Assembly (NCBI GenBank): GCA_965248355.1 | Contig: OZ252098.1 | Location: 1,390,098 to 1,454,097 of the forward strand | Source: Candidatus Latescibacterota bacterium | GTDB taxonomy: Bacteria; Latescibacterota; UBA2968; UBA8231 | DNA: 64,000 nt | Direction: 5' to 3' | Part shown: one piece after another, positions 20,665 to 45,808 of the stretch | Layout: every line of letters begins with the position of its first letter | Position numbering within the stretch: the stretch's first letter is position 1 | Made by a program: the position numbers and the translations under genes | Notes under the pieces: model-generated | Told to the model about the DNA's origin: nothing | Databases searched by the model: none | Seen by the model: the letters and a program-made list of their open reading frames with translations, nothing else

Positions 20665-20689
20665 TTTAGAAGTCCCTATTCCAGGCTCA

Positions 20690-20800
20690 TTCCGGGAATA
20701 CTCCTCGAGGCTCTCCCGGCCCCGGCCGTTGGCGACGGTTCCACGCCCGATGGACCGACTCCACGGTACCAGAGCATCTTGGGGCGCCCAGAGCCAAGAG
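20690..20800 (-). pseudogene. ISL3-family transposase fragment
   Basis: The nucleotide sequence 'ctctcccggccccggccgttggcgacg' and the translation '...GRGRESLEEY' parallel the ISL3 copy at 6090–6120 ('DGRGRESLEAYF'). Confidence 0.4.
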
Positions 20801-21389: not shown

Positions 21390-21540
21390 CACGTGTCATT
21401 CGGCCAGTTGCTGCTCCATGTCCCGGAGGCCGAAGCTACGGCCATTGATCTGCAGGACATCGCAGTAGTGCAGCAGTCGATCCCAGATGGCCGTGGCCAG
21501 ACCCGTCGGCAGCATCTCCGGCCATTGGCGGATGCTCTTC
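21390..21540 (-). pseudogene. IstB-like (IS21 helper ATPase) C-terminal fragment
   Basis: Minus-strand 'MLPTGLATAIWDRLLHYCDVLQINGRSFGLRDMEQQLAE*' matches the IstB C-terminal pattern 'AILDRLLHH..V..I.G.SYRL'. Confidence 0.35.
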
Positions 21541-29815: not shown

Positions 29816-29952
29816 AATGGTTCCTCCGGTGTGAGTGGGGCGGAGAAATAGGGCGGCCCGGTCGCGGGCGTCAAGCATCGGGCTTGCCGGGCACGCGGCA
29901 GCCTGCTATGGTGCACGCAACCCGATATCGACCCGACACCAGGAGCGCGGAC

Positions 29953-30933
29953 ATGCACGCCGGCACCCAGCAGTTCAACACCAGCGATCACGATCTCGAG
30001 TTCCTCGCCCGCCACGGGGTGACCGCCAAGAGCGAGAACCACATCACCTTCCACCGGGAGTTCGGGTGGGACGTGAAGGAGCTGATCGAGAAGAAGGAGA
30101 AGTGCGCCCGCTTCGGCGTCGACCTGGAGATGGTGGCCATCCCCGTCCACTCCCTCGGCGTCGACGGCTGCAGCACTCCCAACTACATGCGCGGCCGGTA
30201 CGACGAGGGCGACCAGGAGATCGAGCTGGTCTGCAACATGATCCGCCAGGCCGCCGAAGCCGGCATCCCGGCGGTGAAGTACTTCCTGTGCGAGATGGAG
30301 AACCAGCGCACCGAGTCGACGCCCCCGGGACGGGGCAACTCACAATACAGCACCTGGAACCTGGAGAAGGCCGACGACTCGCCGCGCTACGACGAGCCGG
30401 TCACGGCCGAGCAGAACTGGGAGCGCATCACCCATTACCTGGAACGCGTCGTGCCGGTGGCCGAGGAGTGCAAGGTGCGCATGGCCTGCCACCCCTGCGA
30501 CCCGTGGCTGCCGCCGGGCTTCAAGGGCGTCGACCGCGTCCTCGGGGGCCCCGAGGGCTTCCGGCGCTTCATCACCATCTGCGAGAGCGACTACCACGGC
30601 GTCAACCTCTGCCTGGGCTGCATGGCCGAGGCCTCCACCGACCCGCGCAACGAGGTGCCGGAGATCATCCGCTACTTCGGGTCGCGCGACAAGATCTTCC
30701 TCTGCCACTTCCGCAACATCGTCGGCGGCCGCAACAAGTTCCAGGAGGTGTGGCCGGACGAGGGCGTCATGAGCATGCACCGCAACATCGGCGCCCTGAA
30801 TGAGGTGGGCTATCCGCACATGGTCGTGCCCGACCACGCCCCCGGCCACCCCGACTCCGACGGCTACCAGGCCTGGGCCTACGAGTTCGGCTACATCCAG
30901 GCCATGATCCAGTCGGTGACCGACGAGGACTGA
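29953..30933 (+). CDS. uxuA: Mannonate dehydratase
   Basis: 'VRMACHPCDPWLPPG...', '...LCHFRNIVGGRNKFQEVWPDEG...', 'MVVPDHAP' align with the UxuA motifs 'VRMAVHPDDPP', 'THLRS', 'MRPDHG'. Confidence 0.65.
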   Translation: MHAGTQQFNTSDHDLEFLARHGVTAKSENHITFHREFGWDVKELIEKKEKCARFGVDLEMVAIPVHSLGVDGCSTPNYMRGRYDEGDQEIELVCNMIRQAAEAGIPAVKYFLCEMENQRTESTPPGRGNSQYSTWNLEKADDSPRYDEPVTAEQNWERITHYLERVVPVAEECKVRMACHPCDPWLPPGFKGVDRVLGGPEGFRRFITICESDYHGVNLCLGCMAEASTDPRNEVPEIIRYFGSRDKIFLCHFRNIVGGRNKFQEVWPDEGVMSMHRNIGALNEVGYPHMVVPDHAPGHPDSDGYQAWAYEFGYIQAMIQSVTDED

Positions 30934-30955: not shown

Positions 30956-33493
30956 CTACAGAGCCGAGGCGCGCCTCGTCAGCTCGGCCCGGGCCTCGGC
31001 GAAGAGGGCGATCAGCCGCGCCCGCACCTCCTCGTCCCTGAACACGCCGATGCGCTCGGCCCAGGCGACGCCGCCCTCCATGTGGGTGAGCAGGTACTCC
31101 CCGTCGCCCTCCTCGAAGGCGCCCCTCCGGCCGACGTCGACGTAGACCGGCGACGAGTGGGCCATCACCGGCCCGGCGTCGGTGGCGTACGGCCCCCAGC
31201 AGCGGGCGGCGATCCAGCAGGGCTTGCCGCACTCGATCTCCGTCTTCAGGGTGATCGAGCGATCGCCCTCCCCCGCCGTCTCCCGCTCCCGGGGGACGCC
31301 GTTGACCACCAGCTCCACCGCGGTCAGGGGCCAGACGCTCCAGGCCCGGGCCTCCACCTCCACGGTGCCGCCGTTGCCGGGCAGGTCGAGCTGGCCGCCC
31401 ATGGGCACGCCGTCGACGCGCAGGTCGATCATGGCGCCGGTGCTGGCGAAGGTCTGACCCGAGCGCACCGCCCGGCACCAGTTGTCGAAGGTGAACTCCC
31501 GGCCCTCGGCGAGGCGGGCATAGGTCCGCGAGCCGCCGAGGATGCGGCCGTTGGACATCTTGTCCGTGCCCCCGACGATGGGCAGCTTCTGGCCCACGTT
31601 CAGCCACCGGTAGTAGCCGCGCTCGCCCTGCCCGATCCGCTCGCCCTCCCAGATCCAGCACATCTCCGCGGCGTCGGCCTGGCCGAGGACGATGTTGGCG
31701 GCGTTCTCGAAGTCGGGGACCGGCATGTGGGGCATGATGACGAGGCCGCCCTGGGCGCGGCACTGCTCCGCCCAGTCCGCCATCAGCGCCTGGATCTCGC
31801 CGCCGACCCAGTCCTCCTGGGGGCCTCCCGTGCACATGGGCGCCACCAGTTCCCGCAGGCCGAGCAGGCTGATGTGGCCGAGCACGTGCTGGCGGTTCTC
31901 CTGGCTCACGTAGACGAGGTGGTTCTCCGTCGACGTGGGCGCCACGCCGCCGGTGAACTCCTCCCAGCTGGTGAACAGCCGCCCCCACTGGCTGGCCAGC
32001 AGGTGCACCACGTTCAGGTCCTCCCCCTCGGCCTCCAGCACGCTCGACTGGGAGGAGAGAAAGTGGACGTGGGTGTCCCCGGACCAGTAGCCCTCGGCCT
32101 TCATGTCGAAGGCGCGCTGCACGGCCAGGGTCAGGTGCCGCTGCCCGGGCTTGATCTCCAGCTGCCGGCGCGCCGGCTCGTACTCGAAGCCGCGGGCCAC
32201 CTCGACGAAGCTGGCCCCCACGGGCAGCTCGATCTGGCAGGTCCCGTCGATGTAGGCGTACGGGGTGCCTCCCGTCTTGCAGTCGCCGCCCATGTCCTCG
32301 AACCAGGCGATGTTGACGTCGGCCTGGTGGCCGTGGGGGGCGAGGTAGACCCCCTCCTTCGAGCGGAAGTGGACGCGGCAGCCCACCGGGTCCCCCGTGT
32401 CGGCGTCGACGACGCGCACGTGCACCCACTGCCGGCCCTCGCCGTCCACCACCTGGACGCGCACGGGTCCGGACTCGGCCTCGCCCCGCTCCAGGACCTC
32501 GCCCCAGCGGAAGCCGGCGGCCGCCTCCCCCGAGGTCACCTCCAGGTTGGCCAGCGGCGAGCCGTGGACCTCGACCTGGCCTCCCGGGCCGACCTGCTGT
32601 CCGCCGCGGCCCCAGCCGGTCTCGTCGGTGGTCAGGAAGTCCGGGCCGGGAAGGAACAGGTCGTCCTGGCGCGCGATCACCCCCCGGTCCACGCCGACCT
32701 CCGGGGCTTCCTCGCCGCCCTCCACCGTCACCGCCACGGTGCGCCGCGCCTCCCAGTGGAAGGGGTCCTCCTGCTCCTGGCACAGGGTGACGGCGCCGAG
32801 GACCAGGGGCGTGGGCGTCGCCGCCTCCAGGACCACCTCGGCGATCTCCGCCTCCGGGCTGGGCACGGCCAGGTCGAAGAGCCACCAGCCCGTCAGGTCG
32901 CCGCCCATGGCGCCCGTCCCGCCGGCGGGACGGCCGTCGGCCCGGTCGTAGCGCGAGTACACGCCCACCTGGGAGCCGCCGTACCCGAGGGCCGGCTCGT
33001 GGAGGCCCACGGAGTCGAAGTGCCGGCCGTTGCGGCACAGGAAGGGATGGTGGCCCCAGGGGGCGTTGATGTCGTGGATCTCCCAGCGCCGGCGCAGGGG
33101 CTGCGCGGACTCGGAGCCATCGGCGAAGCGGACGACGTAGCGGCCGAGGGCCTCGCCCGCCCCCTCGAGGGTGGCCCACTCCCCGTCCACGGGAGCGCAG
33201 GCGTGGGCGAAGAGCAGGCGGCGGGCCCGGGCGCCCACGGGGATGACCACCCGCGACTCGGCGGCCTCCCCGGCCGCGGCGACCACGAAGCGCCGCTCGG
33301 CGTCGGCTTTCGCCAGCTGGAAGGGGACGCCGAGGAAGAGGCACTCGCCGGCCGGCAGACCATCCAGAGGCGTGGCGTGCGGATCGTCGCCGGAGTGGGG
33401 CCACAGCCAGCGCCCGCCGAGATCGATGTTCCCCGTGCCGGCGTTGCAGAGGCTCGTCAGGTCCAGAGGTTGGAAGGAATCGTTCATTGTCAT
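30956..33493 (-). CDS. Two-domain protein: N-terminal domain of unknown function (about 430 aa) plus C-terminal PHP-domain metal-dependent phosphoesterase/hydrolase (CehA/McbA-like)
   Basis: 'YWSGDTHVHFLSSQ' PHP motif and downstream His/Asp ligand pattern. RBS 'aaagga' before the chosen start. Confidence 0.5.
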   Translation of the reverse strand: MTMNDSFQPLDLTSLCNAGTGNIDLGGRWLWPHSGDDPHATPLDGLPAGECLFLGVPFQLAKADAERRFVVAAAGEAAESRVVIPVGARARRLLFAHACAPVDGEWATLEGAGEALGRYVVRFADGSESAQPLRRRWEIHDINAPWGHHPFLCRNGRHFDSVGLHEPALGYGGSQVGVYSRYDRADGRPAGGTGAMGGDLTGWWLFDLAVPSPEAEIAEVVLEAATPTPLVLGAVTLCQEQEDPFHWEARRTVAVTVEGGEEAPEVGVDRGVIARQDDLFLPGPDFLTTDETGWGRGGQQVGPGGQVEVHGSPLANLEVTSGEAAAGFRWGEVLERGEAESGPVRVQVVDGEGRQWVHVRVVDADTGDPVGCRVHFRSKEGVYLAPHGHQADVNIAWFEDMGGDCKTGGTPYAYIDGTCQIELPVGASFVEVARGFEYEPARRQLEIKPGQRHLTLAVQRAFDMKAEGYWSGDTHVHFLSSQSSVLEAEGEDLNVVHLLASQWGRLFTSWEEFTGGVAPTSTENHLVYVSQENRQHVLGHISLLGLRELVAPMCTGGPQEDWVGGEIQALMADWAEQCRAQGGLVIMPHMPVPDFENAANIVLGQADAAEMCWIWEGERIGQGERGYYRWLNVGQKLPIVGGTDKMSNGRILGGSRTYARLAEGREFTFDNWCRAVRSGQTFASTGAMIDLRVDGVPMGGQLDLPGNGGTVEVEARAWSVWPLTAVELVVNGVPRERETAGEGDRSITLKTEIECGKPCWIAARCWGPYATDAGPVMAHSSPVYVDVGRRGAFEEGDGEYLLTHMEGGVAWAERIGVFRDEEVRARLIALFAEARAELTRRASAL

Positions 33494-33512
33494 CCTTTCG
33501 GTTCGTGCCAGG

Positions 33513-34481
33513 TCATCCGGCTCCGAGCACTCGGGCATAGTGGTCCAGGGACAGGTTGCCGCCGCTGAGCACCCCCACCACCCGCCGTCCCGCCAGCCGC
33601 GGGCCCAGACGCGCCGCCGCCGCCAGGGGCGCCGCGGCCGCTCCCTCGGCCAGGAGCCGGGCGTCGCGGGCGTACCAGCGGATCGCCTCCTCGATCTCCT
33701 CGTCGGTCACGAGGACGAGGTCGTCGAGGTGGCGCCACAGGATCTCCATGGTCATCTCGAAGGGCACGCGCGTGGCCAGGCCCTCGTGGACGGTCCGCAT
33801 CTCCGCCTCCACGTCGAGGCGGCGCTCCGACCAGGCCCGCCAGACCGCGGGGGCCGCGGCGGACTGCACGCCGATGACCTCGATCTCCGGGTTGCGGGCC
33901 TTGGCCGCCAGGCAGGTCCCCGCGGCCGCGCTGCCGCCGCCAACGGGCACGAGGATCACCTCCGTCCCGGGCGCGGCCTCGAGGATCTCCACGGCCATGG
34001 TGCCCGCCCCCGCGATCAGCTCGGGCTCGTTGGCCGAGTGCACGTAGCGTCGCCCCTCCCGCCGGGCCACCTCCTCCACCTCGACCCGCGCCTCGTCGAA
34101 GTCGCGGCCGTGGCGGCGCACCTCGGCGCCGAGGCGCTCCATGGCCTCCAGCTTGGCCGGGTTGGCGCCCTCGGCCGGGGCGTAGATCACCACCGAGGCG
34201 CCGAATCTTCCGCCGGCCCAGGCCATGGCCTGGCCGTGGTTGCCGGTGCTGGCGCTGATCAGGCCGCCGGCGAGCTCGGCCTCCGACAGACGCCCTACAA
34301 GGTTGACGGCGCCGCGGACCTTGAAGGCGCCCACGGGCTGGAAGCTCTCGCACTTGACGGCGTAGTCGCAGCCGAGCCGCTTCGACAGGGCCTCGCTGCC
34401 GATCAGGGGCGTGGGCGCCAGGTGCTCCTTCAGGAAGGACCTGGCCGCGTCCACGTCGGCCGCCGTGGGAAGCCGGGTCAT
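33513..34481 (-). CDS. PLP-dependent threonine/serine dehydratase-family enzyme (fold type II)
   Basis: Lys motif 'SFQPVGAFKVRGA' and 'STGNHGQA'. About 320 aa, typical of catabolic dehydratases and racemases. Confidence 0.7.
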   Translation of the reverse strand: MTRLPTAADVDAARSFLKEHLAPTPLIGSEALSKRLGCDYAVKCESFQPVGAFKVRGAVNLVGRLSEAELAGGLISASTGNHGQAMAWAGGRFGASVVIYAPAEGANPAKLEAMERLGAEVRRHGRDFDEARVEVEEVARREGRRYVHSANEPELIAGAGTMAVEILEAAPGTEVILVPVGGGSAAAGTCLAAKARNPEIEVIGVQSAAAPAVWRAWSERRLDVEAEMRTVHEGLATRVPFEMTMEILWRHLDDLVLVTDEEIEEAIRWYARDARLLAEGAAAAPLAAAARLGPRLAGRRVVGVLSGGNLSLDHYARVLGAG

Positions 34482-35257
34482 GGCCGGTGCTCCCGGACCG
34501 CGGCCAGGGCTTCGGCCAGGTGGCGGCGGTAGAGGTCCAGGTCGAGGCCGACGGCGAGGATGCGGTAGCCCTTGTCGAGCAGCTCGCGAGCCTCCTCCGC
34601 GGTGGCGGCGAGGCGGCCCAGGGCCTTGCCCTCGGCCTCGCAGGCGCGGCGCACTTCCTCCTCGGCGGCCAGGTAGTCGGGGTGGTCGAAGAGGCCCGGG
34701 CGGCCGCTGAAGTTGGCCAGGTCGAACTGGCCGATCCAGAGGACGTCGATCCCCTTCACGGCGGCGATCTCCGGGGCGTTCCGGACCCCCCAGGGGCTCT
34801 CGATCTGGGCGATCACGAGGGTGCGCTCGTCGGCCTGGCGCATCTTCTCTTCCAGCGCCTCGTCGGCGCGGTAGTCGTCGTGGGCGACGCCGAAGGCGGC
34901 TCCCCGGCGTCCGGCCATGGGGTAGCGGCAGAACCCGGCCAGGCGCCGGGCCTGGTCGGCGTCGTCGACCATGGGCGCCATGACGCCGAGGGCGCCGGCG
35001 TCGAGGACCCGCGCCGCGAAGTGGTACTCGGCGGCCGGGATGCGCACGAAGGGCACCGCGCCGGTCCCGCCGCAGGTGGCCACGAGGCCGCGGATCGTCT
35101 CCATCGACCAGGCCGTGTGCTCCATGTCGAAGAGCACGAACTCGGCGCCGGCGTTGTCGGCGAGGCGGGCCACGCCGGTGGTCCCGAACTCCATCACCAT
35201 GGTGCCGAAGGACCGGCCGCCCTCCAGCAGGCGGCGCTTGACGGGGTTCTCTCTCAC
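34478..35257 (-). CDS. HpcH/HpaI-family class II (pyruvate/2-oxoacid) aldolase
   Basis: 'DMEHTAW...VRIP...YPMAGRRG' pattern parallel to HpaI/GarL. GTG start at 35257 preceded by GGAGG. A 4-bp overlap couples it to the upstream gene. Confidence 0.7.
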   Translation of the reverse strand: MRENPVKRRLLEGGRSFGTMVMEFGTTGVARLADNAGAEFVLFDMEHTAWSMETIRGLVATCGGTGAVPFVRIPAAEYHFAARVLDAGALGVMAPMVDDADQARRLAGFCRYPMAGRRGAAFGVAHDDYRADEALEEKMRQADERTLVIAQIESPWGVRNAPEIAAVKGIDVLWIGQFDLANFSGRPGLFDHPDYLAAEEEVRRACEAEGKALGRLAATAEEARELLDKGYRILAVGLDLDLYRRHLAEALAAVREHRP

Positions 35258-36300
35258 TCGCCCCTCCGGCGGCGGGCGCAGGCCGCCAGCTTCGCGCGGA
35301 ACGGTTCCGCCTCCAGCACCTCGCCGTTGACCACGTGGCCGGGGGCGCGTCCCTCGGAGACGGCGAGGATGCCGGCGAAGGCGCTCTCCCCCATCATGCG
35401 GAAGCTCTCGTCCGTCCAGGCCAGGGAGTGGGGCGCCAGGATCACGTTGTCGAGCAGGAGCAGGGGATCGCGAGGATCGACGGGTTCCTCCTCGAAGACG
35501 TCGAGGGCGGCGCCGGCGATGGCGCCCTGCCCCAGGGCCGCGGTCAGCGCCGCCTGATCGACGATGGGCCCGCGGGCGACGTTGATCAAGTGGGCCGTCG
35601 GCTTCATCCGGTCCAGCTCCGCGGCGCCGATGAGGTGGCGGGTCTCCGGGGTCAGGGCACAGCAGATGAGGACGAAGTCGGCCTCCCTGAGCAAGTCCGC
35701 CAACGACACCAGCCGCGCCCCCAGCCCGGCGGCGGCCTGCTCGTCGGCGAAGGGATCGGCGGCCAGCAGGGTCATCTCGAAGGGCGCGCACAGCCGGCAG
35801 ACCTCGCGGCCGATGTTGCCCAGCCCCACCACGCCGAGGGTGCGCCCCCGCAGGCCGAGGCCCATGTGGTCGACCCTCTCCGGCCAGCGCCCTTCGCGGG
35901 TGAGCCGGTCCTTGGCCGGCAGCCGGTGGGCCAGGGCCAGGAGGAAGGCCATGGCGGCGCTGGCCACGGGACGCCGTACGCCGTCGGGGGTGATGGTCAG
36001 GGCCACCCCGGCGCGCGTGCAGGCGTCCACGTCCACCGAGTCGTAACCGACCCCGATGCGGGCCACCACCGCCAGCCGGCCGGCGTCCGCCAGGGTTGCC
36101 GCCGAGATCCTCGGGGCCAGGACGAGCAGGGCGTCGCAGTCGGCGACGGCCTCGGCCGGCACCTCGTCGGCGCCCTCCTCGAGGCAGTGCCACTCGACGC
36201 CCTCGGTCCGGTCCAGCGGGGAGAGGTCGATATCGGGAAAGGCCTGGCGGCCGTCGGGCCGCAGGAAGTCCATGGTGAGACCGACGCGAAACATCCTCAT
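35254..36300 (-). CDS. D-isomer-specific 2-hydroxyacid dehydrogenase (NAD-binding)
   Basis: 'GVVGLGNIGREV' NAD-binding motif and 'HLINVARG'. Confidence 0.75.
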   Translation of the reverse strand: MRMFRVGLTMDFLRPDGRQAFPDIDLSPLDRTEGVEWHCLEEGADEVPAEAVADCDALLVLAPRISAATLADAGRLAVVARIGVGYDSVDVDACTRAGVALTITPDGVRRPVASAAMAFLLALAHRLPAKDRLTREGRWPERVDHMGLGLRGRTLGVVGLGNIGREVCRLCAPFEMTLLAADPFADEQAAAGLGARLVSLADLLREADFVLICCALTPETRHLIGAAELDRMKPTAHLINVARGPIVDQAALTAALGQGAIAGAALDVFEEEPVDPRDPLLLLDNVILAPHSLAWTDESFRMMGESAFAGILAVSEGRAPGHVVNGEVLEAEPFRAKLAACARRRRGE

Positions 36301-37037
36301 CCTCCTCCGGAACGGATTCGGGCCTCGGCCTCGCCCAGGGCCGCGGCGTTGTCCCAGGCGGCGATCAGATCGGCCCGGGCCCGCTCGGTTTCCCCGCCGA
36401 GGCGCCCTGCTTCGGCGACGAGGGCCGGCAGGGCGCGGACGACGTTGTCCACGATGGTCACCGTGGCGGCGCGGGCCGTGCGCGACAGCGGGTTCAGGTC
36501 GACGGTCAGGACCTGGCGGCCCATGCGGCGCAGGGCCTCGCAGCGGTCGCCGTCCTCGAGGGGGACGAAGATCACGTCCGCCTCGAGCAGTCCCTCGGGG
36601 TGCACGTGGCGGCGGTTCGAGTCGAGCCCCTCGAGGGCGGTCCCGGCCTCGGGCAGCAGGACACGCTCGGCGCCGTGGGCCTCCAGGTGGGCGGCGATGG
36701 CGCGCTCCCGCTCGCGGGAGCCGTGGAAGATGTTGACCTCGAGGGGAGCCCCGGTGAGCCGGGAGAGCCGCACCAGCTCCCCGGGGACCAGGGCGGCGGC
36801 GTTGCCGTTCACCGAGAGCACCGGTTGGCCGGCGGCCAGCAGCCAGGCCGCCGCCGCTTCGCAGGCGCGCCGGGCCCAGGGTCCGCTGCGCTCGCCCAAG
36901 AGGTAGTCGCAGGCCTCGCCGCGGCCGTGGGCGATCAGCCCGTGAGGCGAGGTGATGCCCGCCTCGACGCCGGCCACGATCAGGTCCCGCGTGAGCAGGG
37001 AGGCGCGGCGCGGATGGCTCTCGGGGACGTCGGTCAC
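36297..37037 (-). CDS. Conserved hypothetical protein; possibly an archaeal-type 4-phosphopantoate–beta-alanine ligase (PPS, COG1701/DUF137)-like ATP-dependent ligase (tentative)
   Basis: At 246 aa it matches PPS proteins in size and sits next to a short GHMP kinase, which is the archaeal PoK/PPS arrangement. The assignment rests on length and context, not on a verified motif. Motifs present: 'HGRGEA', 'SVNGNAAALVP'. Confidence 0.3.
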   Translation of the reverse strand: MTDVPESHPRRASLLTRDLIVAGVEAGITSPHGLIAHGRGEACDYLLGERSGPWARRACEAAAAWLLAAGQPVLSVNGNAAALVPGELVRLSRLTGAPLEVNIFHGSRERERAIAAHLEAHGAERVLLPEAGTALEGLDSNRRHVHPEGLLEADVIFVPLEDGDRCEALRRMGRQVLTVDLNPLSRTARAATVTIVDNVVRALPALVAEAGRLGGETERARADLIAAWDNAAALGEAEARIRSGGG

Positions 37038-37879
37038 GGCTCGATGAGCCCGACGCGGCGGGTCGACAGGGCGGTCTCGGTGGAGCCCGGGAAGGGGACG
37101 TCGCTGAAGACGGCGTTGCCGAGCATGATCATGGAGGCTTGGCCGCCGCGCCGGGTCACCTCGTCGACGGCGGCGCGCACCCCTTCGTGGGCCATGAGGC
37201 CGCTGCCGGACGCGAAGGCCCGGGACTCGCGGATGACGCTGCCCAGGTCCAGGGACGGCGCCTCGCGGAGACCCCCCAAGGCGGCCAGGGCCGAGTCGGC
37301 GGCGGCGTTGATCCGCCGGCGGCGCTCCGGGTCGGAGAGGATGTCCCGCGTGCGGATGGGGCCGAAGTGCCGGTAGTGGATGGAGGCCCCGGGGGCCAGG
37401 GGCATGCGCTGGGCCGCGAGGGGGTCTCCGGCGACGAGCTTCACCAGGCAGCCGCCGTGGTACTGGGCGCAGACATCCCCCAGGCCGGTGAGGTTCTCCA
37501 CCTCGGCCACGTGGGCGGCGGTGGCCAGGGCGCGCTCGGACAGCCCCAGGTCGAGCAGGGCGTTGGCCGCGTAGGCCGCGGCCAGCGAAGAAGCTCCGCT
37601 GAGGCCGAAGCCGCTGCTCAGGGGCAGGGGCGTCTCGACGTCGACGGCCAGCCGCTGCCCGGGCGCGACCCGCTCCAGCACGGCCGCCACCGTGGGGAAC
37701 TCGATCTCCTCGCCGTTGAAGGTGATGCCGCCGCCCCCGCGGCGGACCGAGACGGTGGCCCCCTCGCGCACGGTGAAGCCGAGGCCGAGGGAGTGCATCC
37801 GCGCCGGGTCCTCGTGGGGGATCACCTTGAAGACGCCGGAGATGTTTCCCGGCGCGAAGGCGGCCGCCGCCTCAGCCAT
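37034..37879 (-). CDS. GHMP-family small-molecule kinase (pantoate-kinase-like in size and N-terminus)
   Basis: GHMP ATP-binding loop 'PLSSGFGLSGASSLAAA'. N-terminal 'APGNISGVFKV'. 281 aa. Confidence 0.65.
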   Translation of the reverse strand: MAEAAAAFAPGNISGVFKVIPHEDPARMHSLGLGFTVREGATVSVRRGGGGITFNGEEIEFPTVAAVLERVAPGQRLAVDVETPLPLSSGFGLSGASSLAAAYAANALLDLGLSERALATAAHVAEVENLTGLGDVCAQYHGGCLVKLVAGDPLAAQRMPLAPGASIHYRHFGPIRTRDILSDPERRRRINAAADSALAALGGLREAPSLDLGSVIRESRAFASGSGLMAHEGVRAAVDEVTRRGGQASMIMLGNAVFSDVPFPGSTETALSTRRVGLIEP

Positions 37880-38561
37880 GGACGGCCTCCGGCGCCAGCC
37901 GCTGCGCCTGCAGCCAGCCCGGCAACCGGGCGACTCCGTCGAGCAGGGCCAGGGGCGCGTAGGGGGCGAAGGCCGGAGCCCCGGTGGTGCCGCTGAGGAC
38001 GGCCACGAAGCGGATCGCCCCCCGCCGCGCCGCCTCGGCGTCGGGAAGGCTGTCCCCCACGTAGAGGGACTCGGCGGCGTCGACCTGGAGACGGTCCAGG
38101 GCCAGGTGCAGGCAGCCGGGATCCGGCTTGTGCTCGGAGACGTCCTCGGCCCCGATCACGGCCCCCACGAGGTGACGCAACCCCTCCCGGTCGAGGATCC
38201 CCTCGATGCGGTAACGGTACTTGGTGGAGGCGATGGCGCAGGCCAGGCCCCGGGAGCGCAGTTCCTCCAGCACGCCGGGGACGGCGTCGTAGACCACGGT
38301 GCCCGCGGCCATGACCTGGTCGGCGCGCTCGAGGAAGAGCCTTCCGAACTCGACGCTGCGCCCCCGCTCCGCCTCGCCGTTGAGTGCGGCCAGGATGTTG
38401 GGTACGGAAAGGCCGATGGTGCGCCGGATCTCCTCCTCCCCGGACAGGTCGAGGCCCATGCGCCGCTGGGCATAACGCACGCAGTCGATGACGCCCACGG
38501 AGGAGTCCGCCAGGGTGTAGTCGAAGTCGAAGAGGACCGCCTTGAGCGGCGTCAGGCCCAT
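37872..38561 (-). CDS. HAD-superfamily phosphatase (phosphoglycolate-phosphatase-like)
   Basis: Motif I 'LFDFDYTL', 'KPDP' and 'GDSLPD'. Confidence 0.7.
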   Translation of the reverse strand: MGLTPLKAVLFDFDYTLADSSVGVIDCVRYAQRRMGLDLSGEEEIRRTIGLSVPNILAALNGEAERGRSVEFGRLFLERADQVMAAGTVVYDAVPGVLEELRSRGLACAIASTKYRYRIEGILDREGLRHLVGAVIGAEDVSEHKPDPGCLHLALDRLQVDAAESLYVGDSLPDAEAARRGAIRFVAVLSGTTGAPAFAPYAPLALLDGVARLPGWLQAQRLAPEAVHG

Positions 38562-38566
38562 GCCGG

Positions 38567-39379
38567 TCACGCTTCGGCCGGCGAGGCCGTGGCCCCCGCC
38601 TGGGCGCCGGCGTTCACCCCCAGCCCGCGGCGGTAGGCCTCCAGGGGCAGCAGATCCTCGGGGCCCACGTTGCCGATGTTGGCCTGGGGGCCGAAGCGGT
38701 CGATCAGGTCCCGGCGCATGCTGTGCACGTGATGCTCGCTCACCCCGGCGATCCACGGGCCGGGCAGCTCGAACATCACCTTCTCCAGGCCAACGGAGTC
38801 GACGATCCCGTCGATGTCGGCCGCCGTCCCCGCGTCGCCGCGGATCAGCTCCGCCGCCTCCACCAGAAGCAGGCTGGCTCCCGCCTCCATGCACGCCCTG
38901 GCGTCGTCGGCCAGGGGTACGGCGTTGGCCAAGCCTTCCTTCTTGCCCACCTCCCCGAGGACCTTCAGCCCGAACTCCTCTACCGCCCGGACGATGACCC
39001 GCTCCTTCCACCGCAGCGTCACCGGGGCCAGGTTGTCCGAGACCTCCACCCAGCGGTAGCCGGCCTCGACACAGGCCGGGAGGTAGCGTTCCAGGAGGCC
39101 GTGGACCTCGGCGTACTCCAGGAACTGCCCCCCGGGGAAGGGCTCCACGTGCCACGACAGGTAGCGGTCGATCTTCTCCGTCAGCAGCTTCGCCGGGTGC
39201 AGCCGCGAGAGCCCCACGGCGATCTTGGCGAAGTCGAAGCAGTCGGCCCCGACCGCGATCAGGTCCCGCTGCCGGTGCGGCCCGAGGCCCCAGTCGATGA
39301 CCATTGTCAGCCCCGAGGCGCGCGGCTTGGCGGTGCGCTCCGGGGCCAGATGTCCGTCGAGTCCGTCGAAGGGATGCAC
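38567..39379 (-). CDS. comA: (2R)-phospho-3-sulfolactate synthase (ComA family)
   Basis: 'KPRASGLTMVIDWG...DFAKIAVGLS...FPGGQFLEYA...WVEVSDN...VLGEVGKK...VMFELP' follows the ComA family pattern, including the diagnostic 'KPR..GLT.V.D.G' N-terminus and 'EVGKK'. Confidence 0.75.
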   Translation of the reverse strand: MHPFDGLDGHLAPERTAKPRASGLTMVIDWGLGPHRQRDLIAVGADCFDFAKIAVGLSRLHPAKLLTEKIDRYLSWHVEPFPGGQFLEYAEVHGLLERYLPACVEAGYRWVEVSDNLAPVTLRWKERVIVRAVEEFGLKVLGEVGKKEGLANAVPLADDARACMEAGASLLLVEAAELIRGDAGTAADIDGIVDSVGLEKVMFELPGPWIAGVSEHHVHSMRRDLIDRFGPQANIGNVGPEDLLPLEAYRRGLGVNAGAQAGATASPAEA

Positions 39380-39543: not shown

Positions 39544-42500
39544 ATGGAAACAGGCTCTACTCTCCCATGTCTCTCGCTGGACCTCGAGGTCGGAAAGCAG
39601 GACCGTCGCATCCATGCGTTCGCCGCGATCCGATCGGATACCGACGACCGCCTCGTCTTCAACGGCGGTAACCTCGCCGCAGAACTGGCAAGACTGGACG
39701 ATCTCGCGCACGGTGCCGACTTCCTGCTGGGCCACAACCTGGTCCTCTTCGACCTGCCGCATCTGAAAGCCGCGAAACCCAACCTCCGGCTGTTGCGGTT
39801 GCCGGCGGTGGATACGCTGTGGCTCAATCCCCTCGCCTTTCCGCGTAACCCCTATCACGGTTTGGTCAAGCATTACCAGGACGGACAACTCAAGCGAGGG
39901 CGGCTGAACGATCCCGAACTCGATGCCCGGCTCGCGCTCGACGTCTTTCGTGACCAATGGCGCGCTCTCGGCTCCGCTTCACCGGATCTCTTGCTCGCGT
40001 GGCATTGGTTGACAACGGCGGGCGATATCGGGGACGGCTTCGACAGATTCTTCTCCTCGCTGCGTGAGTCTCCCCGGCCCTCGGACGCGGAAGCCCGCGC
40101 GGCGATAGAGGGACGGTTGGCGGACAGCGCCTGCCGGACCCACGGGCGCGAGGCCACGACAGATCCGGCCCTCTTTGGCTGGGCGCTGGCCTACGCCCTC
40201 GCCTGGCTTTCGGTGGCCGGTGGCAACTCTGTCATGCCGCCGTGGGTACGCCACCAATTCCCCGAGGCGGGACGACTGGTTAGCCGGCTGCGGGATACAG
40301 CTTGTGGAGACTCCGCCTGCGTGTGGTGCCGGGAGCGGCATGACGCCCGCAGGGAACTCTCCCGCTGGTTCGGCTTCAACGGCTTCCGTCCCGAACCTTC
40401 GAGCGCGGACGGAAGCCCGATGCAGCAGTCCATCGTTGAAGCGGCGATGGCCGGGGAGCACGTCCTCGGGATCCTTCCCACCGGCACCGGAAAGTCGCTC
40501 TGCTACCAGATCCCGGCTCTTTCGCGTTACGACAAGACCGGCGCCCTTACAGTGGTGATCTCACCCCTGGTCGCGCTCATGGCGGACCAGGTGGCGGGAC
40601 TGGAAGCACACGGCATCGGGTCGTGTGTCGCCATTAACGGCCTTCTGTCCATGCCCGAGCGGGCCGATGCGCTGGACCGGGTGCGGCTCGGAGACGCCGG
40701 ACTGGTGCTCGTCTCGCCCGAGCAGCTGCGCAGCCAGTCCTTCCGCCGCGTGCTGAACCAGCGCGAGATCGGCGCCTGGGTCATGGACGAAGCCCACTGC
40801 CTGTCGCGATGGGGGCACGACTTCCGACCCGACTACCGCTACGTGGGGCGCTTCATACGCGAGAAGGCGGGATCGGGGCCTGTCCCGCCGGTGTTGTGCC
40901 TCACCGCGACCGCGAAGCCCGATGTCGTCGAGGACATCGCCCGGTACTTCCGAGACTCCATCGGAGCGGAGCTCACAGTCTTCGACGGCGGAGCCCAGCG
41001 CACGAACCTCGAGTTCGTGGTGGTTCCGACCACCGGTGGCGAAAAGTTTTCTCACATCCACCAGATCCTGATGGCTGACCTGCCCCAGGACACGCCCGGC
41101 GGTGCCATCGTCTACTGTGCGACCCGGCGTCAGACCGAAGAGGTGGCGGAGTTTCTGCAGATGAAGGAGATCGCGGCGGACCACTTCCACGCGGGTCTGC
41201 CGCCCGAGACCAAGAAGAGCGTCCAGCTACGCTTCATCGCGGGCGAGCTCCGGGTGATCGCCGCCACCAATGCCTTCGGCATGGGCATCGACAAGCCGGA
41301 CGTGCGGCTGGTGATCCACGCCGACATCCCGGGCTCGCTCGAGAACTACCTGCAGGAGGCGGGGCGCGCCGGGCGGGACCGGGAGACCGCGCGCTGTGTG
41401 CTGTTGTACTCGACGGACGACGTCGAGCGCCAGTTCGGGATGTCCGCCCGGTCGCGCCTCACGCGCCGGGAAATCCACGGCATCCTGCGGGCGCTCCGGA
41501 ACCTCGACCGGAAGAAGCGTCTGAAGGGCGAGGTGGTTGCCACCGCGGGCGAGATCCTCCTGGAGGAGGACGAGAAGGTATTCGAGCGGGACTCAGCCAC
41601 CGACGATACCCGGGTGCGGACCGCCATCGCCTGGTTGGAGGAGGCGGTGCTGCTCACCCGTGAGGAGAACGAGGTGCGGGTGTTTCCCTCGTCCCTTCGG
41701 GTGAGTTCGGTGGAAGAAGCCCGAGCCAAGATCGAGAGCTCGCCCATTGCGGACGCCTACCGCCACCAGTTCCAGCTCATCGCTGAGAAGCTGATCGACG
41801 CCGACCCGGACGAAGGCATCTCCACCGATGAGCTGATGGGCGTGTCTGGCTTGAGCCCCGAAGGTGTACGCGCCGCCCTCTACGACCTGGAGCGCCTCGG
41901 CATCGCGAGGAACGAAACGGCGCTCACCGCCTTCGTCCATACCGGGGTGGAGAGAAGCTCGCTGAAGCGTCTTGACGAGGCGGAGAGTCTTGAGAAGGCA
42001 TTGATCGAGCACCTCCGTCTTGCTGCGCCGGACATGGGTAAGGGTGAGTCCTGGGCTCTGCATTTACGAGTCGCGTCGCAGGTTCTGCGAGATGCTGGGG
42101 TTGTCGATCCTCTTCCCGAGCGGCTATGGCGCATTCTTCGCAGCATTGCCGCTGACGGCCGCGGCGAGGGGGGCGGCTCTGGGAGCCTCGGGATCCGGAA
42201 GCGCGATGCGGAGACCGTGCAGGTAACACTGCAACGCGACTGGCAAGCCCTGGAGGAGACCGCATCGCGGCGCCGTGCGGGGTCGAGACGCCTGCTGGAA
42301 CACCTGCTCGCCGGCCTGTCGCCTGGGAGCCGGGGCACGGATCTCCTGGCCGAGACCACCCTGGGAGAGCTCATGGGCGCGCTAATGTCCGACTTGCTCC
42401 TCAAGAGCAGGCTCAAGAGTCCTGAGAAACTGCTGGACCGAGCTCTCCTGTGGCTGCACGAGCAGGAGGTCATCCGCCTCCACAAGGGTCTCGCGGTCTT

Positions 42501-44748
42501 TCGCCCCGCCATGACCATCCGGCTCACGGACGAGAAGCCGGGGCGGGGATTCGCCACGGCCGACTTCGAGCCGCTCAGACTGCACTACGAGGGGCAGGTT
42601 CGGCAAATCCACGTCATGGTGGAATTCGCGCGGCGGGGTCTGGAGGCCATGGCGGAGGCGCTTCGTCTGGCCATGGAATACTTCGGCATGAACGAGGAGG
42701 AATTCCTGCACCGCTGGCTTCCGGAACGGAGTCGAGAGATCGCCCGCGAGACCACCCCGGAATCGTGGCGGACCATCGTCGAGAGCCTCAAGAACCCCGT
42801 CCAACAGCGGATCGTTGCGGATGATCGAGAGCAGACGAACGTGCTGGTTCTCGCCGGTCCTGGTTCAGGAAAAACGCGGGTGCTGGTGCATCGCATCGCC
42901 TACCTGGTGCGGGCCAGACGCGAGAATCCCCGCGGCATCCTGGCCCTTGCCTACAACCGGCACGCGGCGGTGGAAATTCGGCGGCGCATCTTGGGATTGA
43001 TCGGTGATGAAGCCCGGGGGGTGACCGTGCTCACGTGCCATGCGCTGGCCATGCGACTGGTGGGAGCCAGCTTCCAAGAGCGAGAACGGCGGCGGCTCGA
43101 CGACGATGCATTCCGGGAGGTGTTGCGCCAGGCAGTAGCACTGCTGCGCGGCGAGGGGCTGGAACCGGAGGAAGCGGACGAACAGCGAGAACGACTTCTT
43201 GCGGGCTTCCGCTGGATCCTTGTGGACGAATACCAGGACATCGCTGCGGATCAGTACGAGTTGATATCGGCCCTGGCCGGACGGACTCAGAGAGATGAGG
43301 ATCGCAAGCTCACCCTCTTTGCAGTAGGGGACGACGACCAGAACATCTACGCCTTCAATGGCGCGTCGGTCGAGTTCATCCGCCGCTTCGAAGCGGACTA
43401 CGGTCCGAAGCCCACCTACTTGACCGACAACTACCGCTCCACCGGCCACATCATCGCTGCGGCCAATGCATTGATCGAGCCGGCGCGCGAACGGATGAAG
43501 ACCGGATATCCCATCTGCATAGATCGGCCTCGTGCGAAGAACCCACCGGGCGGCGACTGGCGGGAACTGGACTCGGTCGCTCAAGGCCGTGTGCAGGTTC
43601 TACCAGCGCTACACGATCCGATCATACAAGCGCAGGTTGCGATCACGGAGTTGCAACGCCTCGCTACCCTAGCTCCCGACTGGGACTGGTCCAGGTGCGG
43701 GGTCGTCGCGCGGGAATGGAAGTACCTCGATCCGGTACGTGCATTCTGCGAAGTAAATGGTCTTCCGGTCCAGATGGGAAACGAAGACATCCCGAGCTTC
43801 TGGCTCCTGCGAGACACCCGGACGATGGTCGAATGGCTGCGTGGACGGGATACCTCCTTGGTGAACAGCCCCGACCTCCGTGATTGGGTGAATGCACGTC
43901 CTTCAGGACCCTGGGTCGAGCTTCTTCAGGAGGCTCTGGATGAACATGAGCTTGAAACCGGAGCAGGTGCGGAAGTGAGGGTGGACCCCTTCATCGAGTG
44001 GCTGGCCGAGTGGGGCCGGGAACTTCGTCGCCGCCAGCGCGGGCTCCTGCTGTTGACCGCACATCGCGCCAAGGGATTGGAGTTCGACCACGCGGCCGTG
44101 CTTGACGGAGGCTGGAACAAGATCGACGTCGACAAGGGGGAGGACGAGGACGCGCCAAGACGGCTCTACTACGTGGCCATGACCCGCGCCCGGAAGACCC
44201 TTGCTCTGATTCGATTTCCCGGGCCGCATCGGCTGCTTGATGAATTGCAGGGCAATCCCTCGGTGCTGCAACGAGACGCCGGGTGGCCTGACTTCGCGAG
44301 GGAACCTGAGGCCCCGGCGTATTCGGGGCGATCACGCCCGCACCACGCCCCTGGCGGCTTGCTGCCGGAAACCCTGGAACTCGCGCGTCAATATCGACGG
44401 CCGGGCCTGCGCAGGGTCGATCTGGGATTCGCGGGGCGTCTTCGGCCCAACCATCCGGTGCATCGTGCGATCTCCGCCCTGTCGTCCGGCGATAAGCTGG
44501 AGACACGCGTGACCGAGGCGGGACGTTGGGAATTGCTCGACCTCTCAGGAAGGGTGGTGGGGCGCCTTGCCCGTGACTTCAAACCCCCACCGGGAACGCA
44601 GTGCAGGTCCGCAACAGTTCTGGCCATCATGTCCTGGAGCCGTGACCTGTCGGACTCAAAATACCACGACAGCATACCGTGCGATTCCTGGGAGGTCGTG
44701 GTGCCGGAGTTGGTGTTCGAACCAGTGGCGAGCAACCCGGAAGGTTGA
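39544..44748 (+). CDS. Giant tri-domain nuclease-helicase: DnaQ/DEDDh 3'-5' exonuclease + RecQ-family SF2 helicase + UvrD/PcrA-family SF1 helicase (1734 aa)
   Basis: N-terminal exonuclease 'LDLEVGKQ...FLLGHNLVLFDLPHL'. RecQ motifs 'LGILPTGTGKSLCYQIPAL', 'DEAHCLSRWGHDFRPDY', 'ATNAFGMGIDKPDVRLVIH'. UvrD motifs 'VLAGPGSGKT', 'ILVDEYQD', 'YRST', 'TAHRAKGLEFD', 'YVAMTRAR'. Confidence 0.8.
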   Translation: METGSTLPCLSLDLEVGKQDRRIHAFAAIRSDTDDRLVFNGGNLAAELARLDDLAHGADFLLGHNLVLFDLPHLKAAKPNLRLLRLPAVDTLWLNPLAFPRNPYHGLVKHYQDGQLKRGRLNDPELDARLALDVFRDQWRALGSASPDLLLAWHWLTTAGDIGDGFDRFFSSLRESPRPSDAEARAAIEGRLADSACRTHGREATTDPALFGWALAYALAWLSVAGGNSVMPPWVRHQFPEAGRLVSRLRDTACGDSACVWCRERHDARRELSRWFGFNGFRPEPSSADGSPMQQSIVEAAMAGEHVLGILPTGTGKSLCYQIPALSRYDKTGALTVVISPLVALMADQVAGLEAHGIGSCVAINGLLSMPERADALDRVRLGDAGLVLVSPEQLRSQSFRRVLNQREIGAWVMDEAHCLSRWGHDFRPDYRYVGRFIREKAGSGPVPPVLCLTATAKPDVVEDIARYFRDSIGAELTVFDGGAQRTNLEFVVVPTTGGEKFSHIHQILMADLPQDTPGGAIVYCATRRQTEEVAEFLQMKEIAADHFHAGLPPETKKSVQLRFIAGELRVIAATNAFGMGIDKPDVRLVIHADIPGSLENYLQEAGRAGRDRETARCVLLYSTDDVERQFGMSARSRLTRREIHGILRALRNLDRKKRLKGEVVATAGEILLEEDEKVFERDSATDDTRVRTAIAWLEEAVLLTREENEVRVFPSSLRVSSVEEARAKIESSPIADAYRHQFQLIAEKLIDADPDEGISTDELMGVSGLSPEGVRAALYDLERLGIARNETALTAFVHTGVERSSLKRLDEAESLEKALIEHLRLAAPDMGKGESWALHLRVASQVLRDAGVVDPLPERLWRILRSIAADGRGEGGGSGSLGIRKRDAETVQVTLQRDWQALEETASRRRAGSRRLLEHLLAGLSPGSRGTDLLAETTLGELMGALMSDLLLKSRLKSPEKLLDRALLWLHEQEVIRLHKGLAVFRPAMTIRLTDEKPGRGFATADFEPLRLHYEGQVRQIHVMVEFARRGLEAMAEALRLAMEYFGMNEEEFLHRWLPERSREIARETTPESWRTIVESLKNPVQQRIVADDREQTNVLVLAGPGSGKTRVLVHRIAYLVRARRENPRGILALAYNRHAAVEIRRRILGLIGDEARGVTVLTCHALAMRLVGASFQERERRRLDDDAFREVLRQAVALLRGEGLEPEEADEQRERLLAGFRWILVDEYQDIAADQYELISALAGRTQRDEDRKLTLFAVGDDDQNIYAFNGASVEFIRRFEADYGPKPTYLTDNYRSTGHIIAAANALIEPARERMKTGYPICIDRPRAKNPPGGDWRELDSVAQGRVQVLPALHDPIIQAQVAITELQRLATLAPDWDWSRCGVVAREWKYLDPVRAFCEVNGLPVQMGNEDIPSFWLLRDTRTMVEWLRGRDTSLVNSPDLRDWVNARPSGPWVELLQEALDEHELETGAGAEVRVDPFIEWLAEWGRELRRRQRGLLLLTAHRAKGLEFDHAAVLDGGWNKIDVDKGEDEDAPRRLYYVAMTRARKTLALIRFPGPHRLLDELQGNPSVLQRDAGWPDFAREPEAPAYSGRSRPHHAPGGLLPETLELARQYRRPGLRRVDLGFAGRLRPNHPVHRAISALSSGDKLETRVTEAGRWELLDLSGRVVGRLARDFKPPPGTQCRSATVLAIMSWSRDLSDSKYHDSIPCDSWEVVVPELVFEPVASNPEG

Positions 44749-44899
44749 GCAACGTCTTGCGGAACAGCTGCGGTGCCCCGGTGCCTGCGCTCGGATTCGC
44801 TCAAGCGGCGGCTGCCTCGGGGCGATTTTCCATCCGCCGCCCGCAAAGCTACCTTCCCGGCAGGCGTCTCGACCCGGCGCCGATCCCGAGGAGGCCGCC

Positions 44900-45808
44900 A
44901 TGACCATCACAGCCGACGTTCAGACCCTTCCGCAGCGCATCCTCGGCAAGACCGGCGAGCGCGTCCCCGTCCTCGGCCTCGGCTCGGCCTGCGGAGGACT
45001 GGGCCTGGGCGACGCCGAGGCGATCGAGCTCTACGAGAAGGCCATCGACCGCGGCGTCACCTACATCGACACCGCCCCGGGCTACGAGCGCGCCCAGCGG
45101 CAGCTCGGACACGTGGTGCCCCGCCGCCGCGACGAGCTCTTCCTGGTCACCAAGTCGCCCACCGCCGACGGCGCCGAGGCCGTGCGCCTGCTGGAGCAGA
45201 ACCTGCGCGATCTCGGCACCGACGCCGTGGACCTGTGCTACGTCCACTCCCTGGGCAACTACGACGTCGACCAGGTCCTGGCCCCCGACGGCGCCCTCGC
45301 CGGTTTGCGAGAAGCCCAGAGGCGGGGGCTGACCCGCTACGTCGGCTTCACCGCACATCACAAGACCGGAAGCTCGGAGCGCGTCCTCCGGGAGGCGGAG
45401 GTCGACGTCATCATGGTGGCCCTCAACTTCGTCGACCACCACACCTACGGCTTCGACCGCACCGTGCTGCCCCTGGCCGCCGAACGCAACGTCGGCGTGG
45501 CCGCCATGAAGGTCTACGGCGGCGCCGAGGCGATGGAGTACCAAACGCGGGAGGACGAGGACCAGCGCCCCTCCGCCCTGGAGGCCAGCGCCCCCGCCTT
45601 CGATCACGAACGCGCCCTGCGCTGGGCCCTCGGCCTGCCGGGCGTCAACGTCGCCGTGGTCGGCATGTACTCCGAGGAGGAGCTGGACCGCAACATCGAG
45701 TGGGCCCGCCGCTGGCAGCCGCTGACAGCGGAGGAGGAGGCGCAACTGCTGGAGGAAGGCCGGCGTATCGCCCGCTCCTGGGGCGACCACTACGGGGATA
45801 CCACATGA
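44900..45808 (+). CDS. Aldo/keto reductase-family oxidoreductase
   Basis: 'RILGKTGERVPVLGLGS...' with strong SD 'GAGGAGG' upstream. AKR-like 'IDTAPGY', 'HHKTG'. Confidence 0.7.
   Translation: MTITADVQTLPQRILGKTGERVPVLGLGSACGGLGLGDAEAIELYEKAIDRGVTYIDTAPGYERAQRQLGHVVPRRRDELFLVTKSPTADGAEAVRLLEQNLRDLGTDAVDLCYVHSLGNYDVDQVLAPDGALAGLREAQRRGLTRYVGFTAHHKTGSSERVLREAEVDVIMVALNFVDHHTYGFDRTVLPLAAERNVGVAAMKVYGGAEAMEYQTREDEDQRPSALEASAPAFDHERALRWALGLPGVNVAVVGMYSEEELDRNIEWARRWQPLTAEEEAQLLEEGRRIARSWGDHYGDTT

Follow-up and report, generated by a model that had tools for sequence, protein, structure and literature searches.

A seven-gene overlapping operon in a Candidatus Latescibacterota genome: a predicted archaeal-type phosphopantothenate module among ComA-like, aldolase-dehydrogenase, and dehydratase-type genes

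Must bacterial genes that overlap end to end serve a single pathway? The question is raised by positions 33513-39379 (minus strand) of a 64,000-nucleotide stretch of contig OZ252098.1 from Candidatus Latescibacterota bacterium (GenBank assembly GCA_965248355.1; the whole stretch is referred to as the window), where seven open reading frames (ORFs) encode, in this order, a ComA-like protein, a HAD phosphatase, a GHMP kinase of pantoate kinase (PoK) type, a phosphopantothenate synthetase (PPS), a 2-hydroxyacid dehydrogenase (2HADH), an HpcH-type aldolase, and a pyridoxal phosphate (PLP) enzyme (PALP). A sequence-only reading had combined them in a candidate route whose product would be a sulfonated or pantoate-like cofactor or metabolite. 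Here, we report that this proposal is not supported, as PoK-PPS has the marks of an ordinary coenzyme A (CoA) module, and ComA, 2HADH-HpcH, and PALP come and go independently. Our leading reading, held with a little more belief than doubt, is a tightly packed, functionally mosaic operon that would provide 4'-phosphopantothenate and, separately, sulfolactate, and that carries an unrelated 2-oxoacid cassette.

Gene content was compared between the window and related loci (labeled L001, L175, etc.), in which neighboring ORFs were called with a simple heuristic based on GC content at third codon positions (GC3), so that some loci are miscalled. Composition differs by whole modules around PoK-PPS, which is the only near-invariant unit across approximately 170 related loci. 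The order ComA-HAD-PoK-PPS-2HADH-HpcH-PALP, followed by a CehA-type gene, is found in the window and in L001, L002, L011 to L013, and L033 (L096 is cut after HpcH). In L003 to L005 and L014, an unassigned gene precedes ComA, a CocE/NonD hydrolase gene (S15 hydrolase) lies between ComA and HAD, and PoK-PPS-2HADH-HpcH-PALP follow; L006, L007, L015, L098, and L099 have the same arrangement without 2HADH-HpcH. PALP, too, is not present in every locus with this hydrolase. Shorter combinations are ComA-PoK-PPS-PALP with a second PALP-type gene (L019, L032, and L035), PoK-PPS-PALP (L009), PoK-PPS-GH2-HpcH (L107), and, in many loci, PoK-PPS alone. ComA (with or without HAD), 2HADH-HpcH, and PALP have thus each been gained or lost independently around PoK-PPS, and ComA joins the pair only in some Latescibacterota lineages. 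Of 80 metagenome loci recovered with the window PPS, only 3 have ComA; the DNA upstream of PPS is long enough to judge in 57, and 50 of these carry a PoK gene in front of PPS. Conservation of the neighborhood, which the sequence-only reading had proposed to check, is borne out by recurrence of the gene block in Latescibacterota relatives.

The unit at the center of these loci is, as judged from sequence comparison, an archaeal-type pantoate kinase/phosphopantothenate synthetase pair. The 246-aa protein, formerly a putative ligase, matches PF02006 (218.5 bits; cut-off, 26.4), passes NF010324 for phosphopantothenate/pantothenate synthetase (318.4 bits; cut-off, 227), falls short of the equivalog NF041123 (287 bits; cut-off, 300), and aligns over its full length with Thermococcus kodakarensis PPS (PDB 3wdk; 216 bits, residues 1-242). 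The kinase matches GHMP_kinases_N in Pfam (46.5 bits); its best NCBIfam model is the methanogen pantoate kinase NF040725 (143 bits, short of the cut-off of 380), and its best PDB match is T. kodakarensis pantoate kinase (6jbc), in keeping with the archaeal type assigned to it earlier. Rather than falling into unrelated families at an unconserved locus, the two proteins thus group with PoK and PPS at loci that recur.

Elsewhere, among 144 neighbor ORFs scanned from PoK-PPS loci without other operon genes, the pair is accompanied by CoaBC (DFP plus Flavoprotein domains) in seven loci and by ketopantoate hydroxymethyltransferase (PanB) in three. Of the 80 columns without variation in CoaBC-linked PPSs and the T. 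kodakarensis enzyme, the window PPS matches 70 exactly, and the window PoK matches 43 of the 46 columns invariant among CoaBC-linked PoKs; the departures are mostly conservative, and neither protein is more divergent than stand-alone bacterial pairs. Pairs of this kind were seen in one Planctomycetota metagenome-assembled genome (MAG) and one 8.9-Mb genome. Because of these neighbors and the retained residues, the pair is best described as an ordinary CoA module, in which PoK would phosphorylate D-pantoate to 4-phosphopantoate, and PPS would use ATP to join 4-phosphopantoate to beta-alanine, yielding 4'-phosphopantothenate for CoA. No further CoA gene was found among the annotated ORFs of the window, and Pfam and NCBIfam searches detected no PF02548 ketopantoate hydroxymethyltransferase and no PanE- or IlvC-type reductase among the operon proteins. 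A link to an "archaeal-like" gene island of tetrahydromethanopterin/methanofuran type was considered and dropped, as neither the window nor the related loci hold one-carbon-transfer genes.

A precedent for this module in bacteria exists. Sponge-associated Entoporibacteria carry PoK and PPS without detectable PanC or PanK, with PoK/PPS replacing PanC/CoaX, and they lack the classical KPR gene (Thomes and Lescure, PMC7883664). The window host belongs to the same sponge-symbiont guild but to another phylum, Latescibacterota. Compared with the archaeal phosphopantothenate route (6jbc and 3wdk; for Entoporibacteria, PMC7883664), the window pair is alike in its adjacency, in the full-length alignment with 3wdk, and in the invariant residues, and differs in missing the archaeal equivalog cut-offs and in sharing an operon with ComA, HAD, 2HADH, HpcH, and PALP. 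Neither the gene combination nor PoK or PPS in Latescibacterota was described in any paper of the literature searched; each part of the operon belongs to a known family, and the PoK/PPS route itself has already been published for Poribacteria (PMC7883664).

The layout agrees with the earlier account of seven coupled minus-strand genes with 4- to 8-bp overlaps (Table 1). In gene order, successive overlaps are 4, 8, 4, 4, 4, and 4 bp, with GTGA/ATGA stop-start junctions, and all seven earlier family calls were upheld by Pfam matches exceeding the gathering score. HAD and HpcH were overextended in the mechanical ORF list, and their corrected starts are GTG codons overlapping the upstream stop; an alternative HAD start is the ATG at 38561, 5 nt past the ComA stop, which is how the relatives are called. 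GC content is 0.69 to 0.75 around the locus, and GC3 of the block ORFs is 0.94 to 0.96 where the filter measured it. Low-complexity or chance ORFs were ruled out, since all eight genes (the seven and the CehA/McbA-type gene downstream) are GC3 rich and have orthologs. A promoter/terminator scan of the coding strand within the block found neither a terminator-like nor a sigma-70-like site. The seven genes are probably cotranscribed.

Table 1. Positions in the window of the seven-gene block, the gene downstream of it, and the aldo/keto reductase gene upstream
Feature	Position	Strand	Details
ComA-like, (2R)-phospho-3-sulfolactate synthase family	38567..39379	-	270 aa
HAD-IA phosphatase, phosphoglycolate-phosphatase-like	37872..38570	-	232 aa
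GHMP kinase, pantoate kinase (PoK) type	37034..37879	-	281 aa
4-Phosphopantoate--beta-alanine ligase (PPS)	36297..37037	-	246 aa
D-isomer-specific 2-hydroxyacid dehydrogenase (2HADH), glyoxylate/hydroxypyruvate-reductase-like	35254..36300	-	348 aa
HpcH/HpaI class II pyruvate aldolase	34478..35257	-	259 aa
PALP, fold-type II PLP enzyme, Ser/Thr dehydratase/serine racemase type	33513..34481	-	322 aa
CehA/McbA-family metallohydrolase-domain protein	30956..33538	-	860 aa; domain at residues 483-801
Aldo/keto reductase (AKR)	44567..45808	+	PF00248, 90 bits, ORF residues 146-392

At the head of the block, the ComA-like protein matches PF02679 at 165.4 bits (cut-off, 25.2; profile positions 1-240 of 243), the equivalog TIGR03849 at 156 bits (short of the cut-off of 280), and Methanocaldococcus jannaschii ComA (PDB 1qwg) at 91 bits. 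It was aligned with M. jannaschii ComA, 23 other bacterial and archaeal homologues, and 13 members of its own clade. The family-invariant columns, which include D30, K43, G74, G75, E79, E103, S105, E133, G135, E168, E205, N224, E237, and R240 (1qwg numbering), are the same in each of these 13 proteins. Aligned pairwise with 1qwg, the protein keeps the EVGKK motif, which falls on positions 133-137 and contains the residue matching Lys137, the proposed proton donor. The clade also has the indel pattern of the archaeal enzyme. Because the invariant residues, the motif, and the indel pattern are kept, the protein looks like a working synthase and the chemistry of phosphoenolpyruvate (PEP) plus sulfite is plausible; the enzyme would most likely add sulfite to PEP, giving (2R)-phosphosulfolactate. 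The neighboring HAD protein (HAD_2, 116 bits; best NCBIfam model PGP_bact, 102 bits, short of the cut-off of 180) is of a phosphoglycolate-phosphatase (PGP) class that would suit a 2-phospho-hydroxyacid such as phosphosulfolactate, and it would most likely release sulfolactate, a possible sulfite sink or sulfonate metabolite. HAD is missing from some ComA-linked loci.

A ComA/ComB-type sulfolactate module is formed in Bacillus subtilis by YitD/YitC. The methanogen ComA/ComB module (PMC5695019) resembles the window genes in having a PF02679 enzyme with the conserved signature followed by a phosphatase, with the same predicted chemistry; the window differs in its PGP-type HAD without a ComB-family match, in the lack of ComC and ComDE, and in the separate clade of its ComA (see the 1qwg score above). 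This clade comprises 26 species-representative loci at 58% identity or more, with the next relatives at 30% or less among the species-representative genomes scanned. Its hosts are MAGs labeled Latescibacterota, Gemmatimonadetes/Gemmatimonadaceae, or Poribacteria, and one labeled only "bacterium"; the closest of these, with ComA identities of 82 to 88%, are MAGs of Candidatus Latescibacterota, a few of them under the label Gemmatimonadaceae. Several of the close-relative MAGs appear, by accession style (OZ and CBD prefixes), to come from sponge metagenome projects.

Coenzyme M biosynthesis, archaeal or bacterial, was rejected, and the sequence-only reading had already set aside a simple coenzyme M pathway. 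No family match to ComB, ComC, or ComDE was found among the operon proteins or the annotated window ORFs, the operon holds neither XcbA nor an enzyme of the aspartase/fumarase superfamily (Lyase_1; XcbC and XcbD), and PALP is not of XcbE type. Also rejected was 2HADH as a substitute for ComC, since it belongs to a D-specific family and (2R)-sulfolactate goes with (S)-malate enzymes, a stereochemical mismatch that follows from our own Cahn-Ingold-Prelog argument. Enzymes of the ComC type act on both (R)-sulfolactate and (S)-malate (PMC5695019). The bacterial XcbABCDE pathway (PMC9457059) is alike in starting with a ComA homologue and in using a fold-type II PLP enzyme; the window lacks XcbC, XcbD, and XcbA, and its PLP enzyme is of dehydratase/racemase rather than XcbE/DcyD type.

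Other surroundings of the ComA-like gene were recorded. In Poribacteria, no PoK-PPS pair lies within 10 kb of it; the genes before it are always one for a xylose-isomerase-like TIM-barrel protein and one for a sulfatase (L024, 7496-10795, and 10 other loci within L018 to L034), and four Laminin_G_3 genes lie upstream of it in most of these loci. The 11 Poribacteria loci are closely related and count as one observation. In L091 to L093, a ComA-like gene stands alone beside squalene-synthase-like genes or glycoside hydrolases. In some relatives (L003, 4519-8509; L006, 4382-8481), ComA comes after a conserved protein of 526 to 539 aa without a Pfam match, which was considered as a sulfonate transporter and rejected, as it has no predicted transmembrane segment; the hydrolase inserted between ComA and HAD there is of the CocE/NonD family (TIGR00976, 362 bits).

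The two genes after PPS form a further module. 2HADH matches PF02826 (2-Hacid_dh_C, 197 bits) and PF00389 (69.5 bits), with archaeal glyoxylate reductases as best PDB matches (approximately 200 bits). HpcH matches PF03328 (117 bits; cut-off, 25) and, in the PDB, HpaI, YfaU, and GarL (approximately 96 to 109 bits), and falls short of the HpaI (118 versus 369 bits) and GarL (114 versus 407 bits) equivalogs. Together they would split 4-hydroxy-2-oxoacids into pyruvate and an aldehyde, or form them from these, and interconvert 2-oxoacids and 2-hydroxyacids. They are a portable, independent cassette because they recur in L175 and L176 (identity to the window, 68% for 2HADH and 59% for HpcH), where they overlap by 4 bp, follow BNR_2 and GDPD genes, and have neither PoK-PPS nor ComA within 6 kb, and because HpcH occurs alone beside a BNR_2 gene in L177. 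Given such neighbors, its most likely connection is with the breakdown of sugar acids or glycans. Compared with the HpaI/HpcH, YfaU (RhmA), and GarL systems and with glyoxylate/hydroxypyruvate reductases, the window proteins are alike in their similarity scores and in forming a coupled cassette, and differ in that the cassette lies within a vitamin/sulfonate operon instead of a sugar-acid operon, and in missing the equivalogs. Across these loci (L175, 2445-6786; L176; L177, 5474-7849), 2HADH-HpcH or HpcH alone lies beside BNR_2 (sialidase-like) and GDPD genes, and such company may mean that a released sugar acid is processed by way of a class II aldolase. A UxuA-like gene lies nearby in the window (29884-30933) and in close relatives.

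The position of the cassette suggests another explanation, in which the block is a self-contained phosphopantothenate operon with ComA, HAD, and PALP as bystanders. HpcH would replace PanB, forming ketopantoate from 2-oxoisovalerate and a one-carbon aldehyde, and the D-specific 2HADH would replace PanE/IlvC, reducing it to D-pantoate for PoK and PPS. YfaU-type aldolases accept formaldehyde with 2-oxoacids. The window HpcH resembles YfaU (PDB 2vws, 107 bits), the cassette fits precisely between PPS and PALP with translational coupling, and, by our own reasoning, the D/(R) configuration of D-pantoate is the product expected of a D-specific 2HADH; the absence of a classical KPR from Entoporibacteria (PMC7883664) would also leave room for a substitute. 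The distribution of the genes points the other way. The cassette is also found beside BNR_2 and GDPD where PoK-PPS is lacking, HpcH of this subfamily adjoins GH2 or BNR_2 genes, and its homologues at 55 to 60% identity are very numerous, Chloroflexota MAGs included, and widespread in phyla not known for PoK/PPS. Many ComA-PoK-PPS loci lack the cassette, and where PoK-PPS has a pantoate-forming neighbor elsewhere, it is canonical PanB. We regard this explanation as unlikely and the mosaic operon as the better account of the cassette.

The last gene of the block encodes a PALP protein (Pfam, 249 bits) whose best NCBIfam model is threonine dehydratase NF004771 (255 bits, short of the cut-off of 317) and whose best PDB matches are Schizosaccharomyces pombe serine racemase and TdcB; it would deaminate or racemize a beta-substituted, Ser/Thr-like amino acid. 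Threonine dehydratases lead its NCBIfam matches, and XcbE is not among the best 25 listed. Most Latescibacterota loci have an ortholog after PPS, directly or past 2HADH-HpcH, whether ComA is present or not. In one Latescibacterota lineage, a second PLP enzyme comes after ComA-PoK-PPS-PALP (L019, 13670-14707; L032, 13776-14810; L035, 13700-14734); it scores highest with the models for the D-cysteate sulfo-lyase CuyA (226 bits) and for the coenzyme M enzyme XcbE (203 bits), in each case short of the cut-off of 450.

These genes raise the possibility that the block handles sulfite and sulfonates, a PLP enzyme cleaving or racemizing a cysteate-like sulfonate, ComA and HAD trapping the sulfite, and PoK-PPS merely sharing the transcript. 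CuyA-type D-cysteate sulfo-lyases need a racemase partner (PMC11193023), and in the three loci the CuyA/XcbE-family enzyme stands after a serine-racemase-like PALP that may play, with PLP as cofactor, the part of the CuyB racemase; a sulfatase gene precedes the ComA-like gene in Poribacteria. Compared with CuyA/CuyB cysteate degradation (PMC11193023), the block is alike in having a PF00291 enzyme and in the predicted release or handling of sulfite, and in L019, L032, and L035 the homologous block has a CuyA-like neighbor, but that gene is limited to one lineage, and the window itself has no CuyA-type gene and no PF01177 racemase. The window PALP was itself rejected as a cysteate sulfo-lyase, its best matches being Thr/Ser dehydratases and serine racemase. 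Sulfatases release sulfate rather than sulfite, and spending PEP to turn cysteate into sulfolactate brings no obvious benefit. We therefore think it quite unlikely that sulfonate handling explains the block, and again prefer a mosaic in which PALP is one more independent module.

Could the modules still work on a common product? An integrated hybrid would take a sulfonate from ComA and HAD and a hydroxy acid from the aldolase and dehydrogenase, and pass them through PoK-like phosphorylation and PPS-like ligation to a sulfonated pantothenate-like product. We infer that no chemically sensible hand-over connects the modules, because the operon makes no amine that PPS could join to a sulfonate (its beta-alanine would come from elsewhere), because dephosphorylation of sulfolactate by HAD followed by rephosphorylation of the same small molecule by the kinase would be futile, and because the D-specific dehydrogenase is of the wrong class for (2R)-sulfolactate; metabolites would accordingly not flow between them. 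The retention by PoK and PPS of nearly all residues invariant in CoaBC-linked proteins, the dispensability of ComA, HAD, 2HADH-HpcH, and PALP, each in some related loci, and the lack of linkage between ComA-like and PoK-PPS genes in Poribacteria, which carry PoK and PPS too (PMC7883664), also speak against such a hybrid, which we consider very unlikely.

Several observations favor a functional link or otherwise weigh against the mosaic operon. All seven genes are translationally coupled in the window, and the combination appeared in no paper of the literature searched. The ComA-PoK-PPS(-PALP) adjacency persists down to approximately 60% PPS identity, i.e., over approximately 40% divergence, and ComA-linked loci form two PPS clades separated by unlinked ones in a neighbor-joining tree (distance based only, without support values). 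This two-clade recurrence is less easily explained by pure chance or inertia and is the strongest point for a functional link. In L019, L032, and L035, the gene of the CuyA/XcbE/D-cysteine-desulfhydrase family joins the block and places sulfonate-type genes on both sides of PoK-PPS. Finally, PoK, ComA, HAD, 2HADH, HpcH, and PALP all score below NCBIfam equivalog cut-offs. A real coupling of sulfite/sulfonate chemistry to the phosphopantothenate branch in an undescribed pathway nevertheless strikes us as highly improbable; it could take the form of a sulfonated pantothenate- or CoA-like metabolite, or of a vitamin or sulfonate released by HAD and exchanged with the sponge host.

If the mosaic operon is the correct reading, the range of the PoK/PPS route to CoA, known from sponge Poribacteria, would take in Latescibacterota as well, and PoK-PPS loci of other bacterial MAGs (e.g., Planctomycetota) point to the same wider spread. 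Such a spread would weaken the route as a marker separating the domains and would call for a more exact name where these MAGs are annotated with "GHMP kinase". The ComA clade, restricted to Latescibacterota and Poribacteria and probably making sulfolactate, is relevant to the exchange of sulfonates in sponge holobionts. Operons with tight overlaps in compact high-GC genomes can be mosaics, and reading them as one pathway overstates their novelty. Were the coupling real instead, a new sulfonated cofactor-like metabolite would be expected.

The gene downstream of the block had been taken for a PHP-domain phosphoesterase. It does adjoin the block, but it has no Pfam match and carries a CehA/McbA metallohydrolase domain instead (NF038032, 147 bits; cut-off, 80). 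Its start probably lies a little downstream of 33538, and as called it overlaps or abuts PALP, with which it probably shares a transcription unit. Orthologs of this 860-aa protein (55 to 98% identity) lie near PoK-PPS in many Latescibacterota loci. In L001 (13551-16084; 1.16-Mb contig), the ortholog is split into two ORFs of 317 and 527 aa, either a frameshift/pseudogene or an assembly error; it is intact in L002 (866 aa). In L003, L006, L009, and L107, an HDOD-domain gene on the opposite strand and a CehA-like gene form a syntenic backbone downstream of PPS/PALP, often joined by a sulfatase and a DUF3392 membrane protein.

Upstream of the block, the AKR gene lies on the opposite strand from ComA in L001 to L007. 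The window has a 1,734-aa fusion (39544-44748, plus strand) of a RecQ-like DEAD/Helicase_C module and a UvrD helicase between the two genes, and this looks like an insertion of approximately 5 kb because AKR directly adjoins ComA in the closest relatives, L001 and L002.

Elsewhere, the window holds an 890-aa protein (48832-51504) with no match and a 1,908-aa ORF (51694-57420, minus strand) in which Pfam detects only an FtsX-like permease C-terminal region and a weak Peptidase_M28. A group II intron RNA match (RF00029, 63 bits; gathering cut-off, 40) lies at 8616-8714 (plus strand); no intact reverse transcriptase was seen beside it, and the downstream ORF (9531-10709) has no Pfam match. The window also contains eukaryote-like repeat proteins and several transposases. 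From approximately 10000 to 21500, GC content falls to 0.55 to 0.62 (0.68 to 0.75 around it) and GC skew is strongly negative. Minus-strand genes of this island encode a tetratricopeptide repeat protein (10628-11809), a protein with leucine-rich repeats and a PD40 beta-propeller (12338-13963), a DsbA-like protein, a family 2 glycosyltransferase (GT2), and a GT1-transglutaminase fusion (18184-20664), and transposase genes of ISL3 (5666-6676), DDE_3 (21658-22740), and DUF772 (22847-23548) type lie near it. With its eukaryote-like repeat proteins, the low-GC island looks horizontally acquired.

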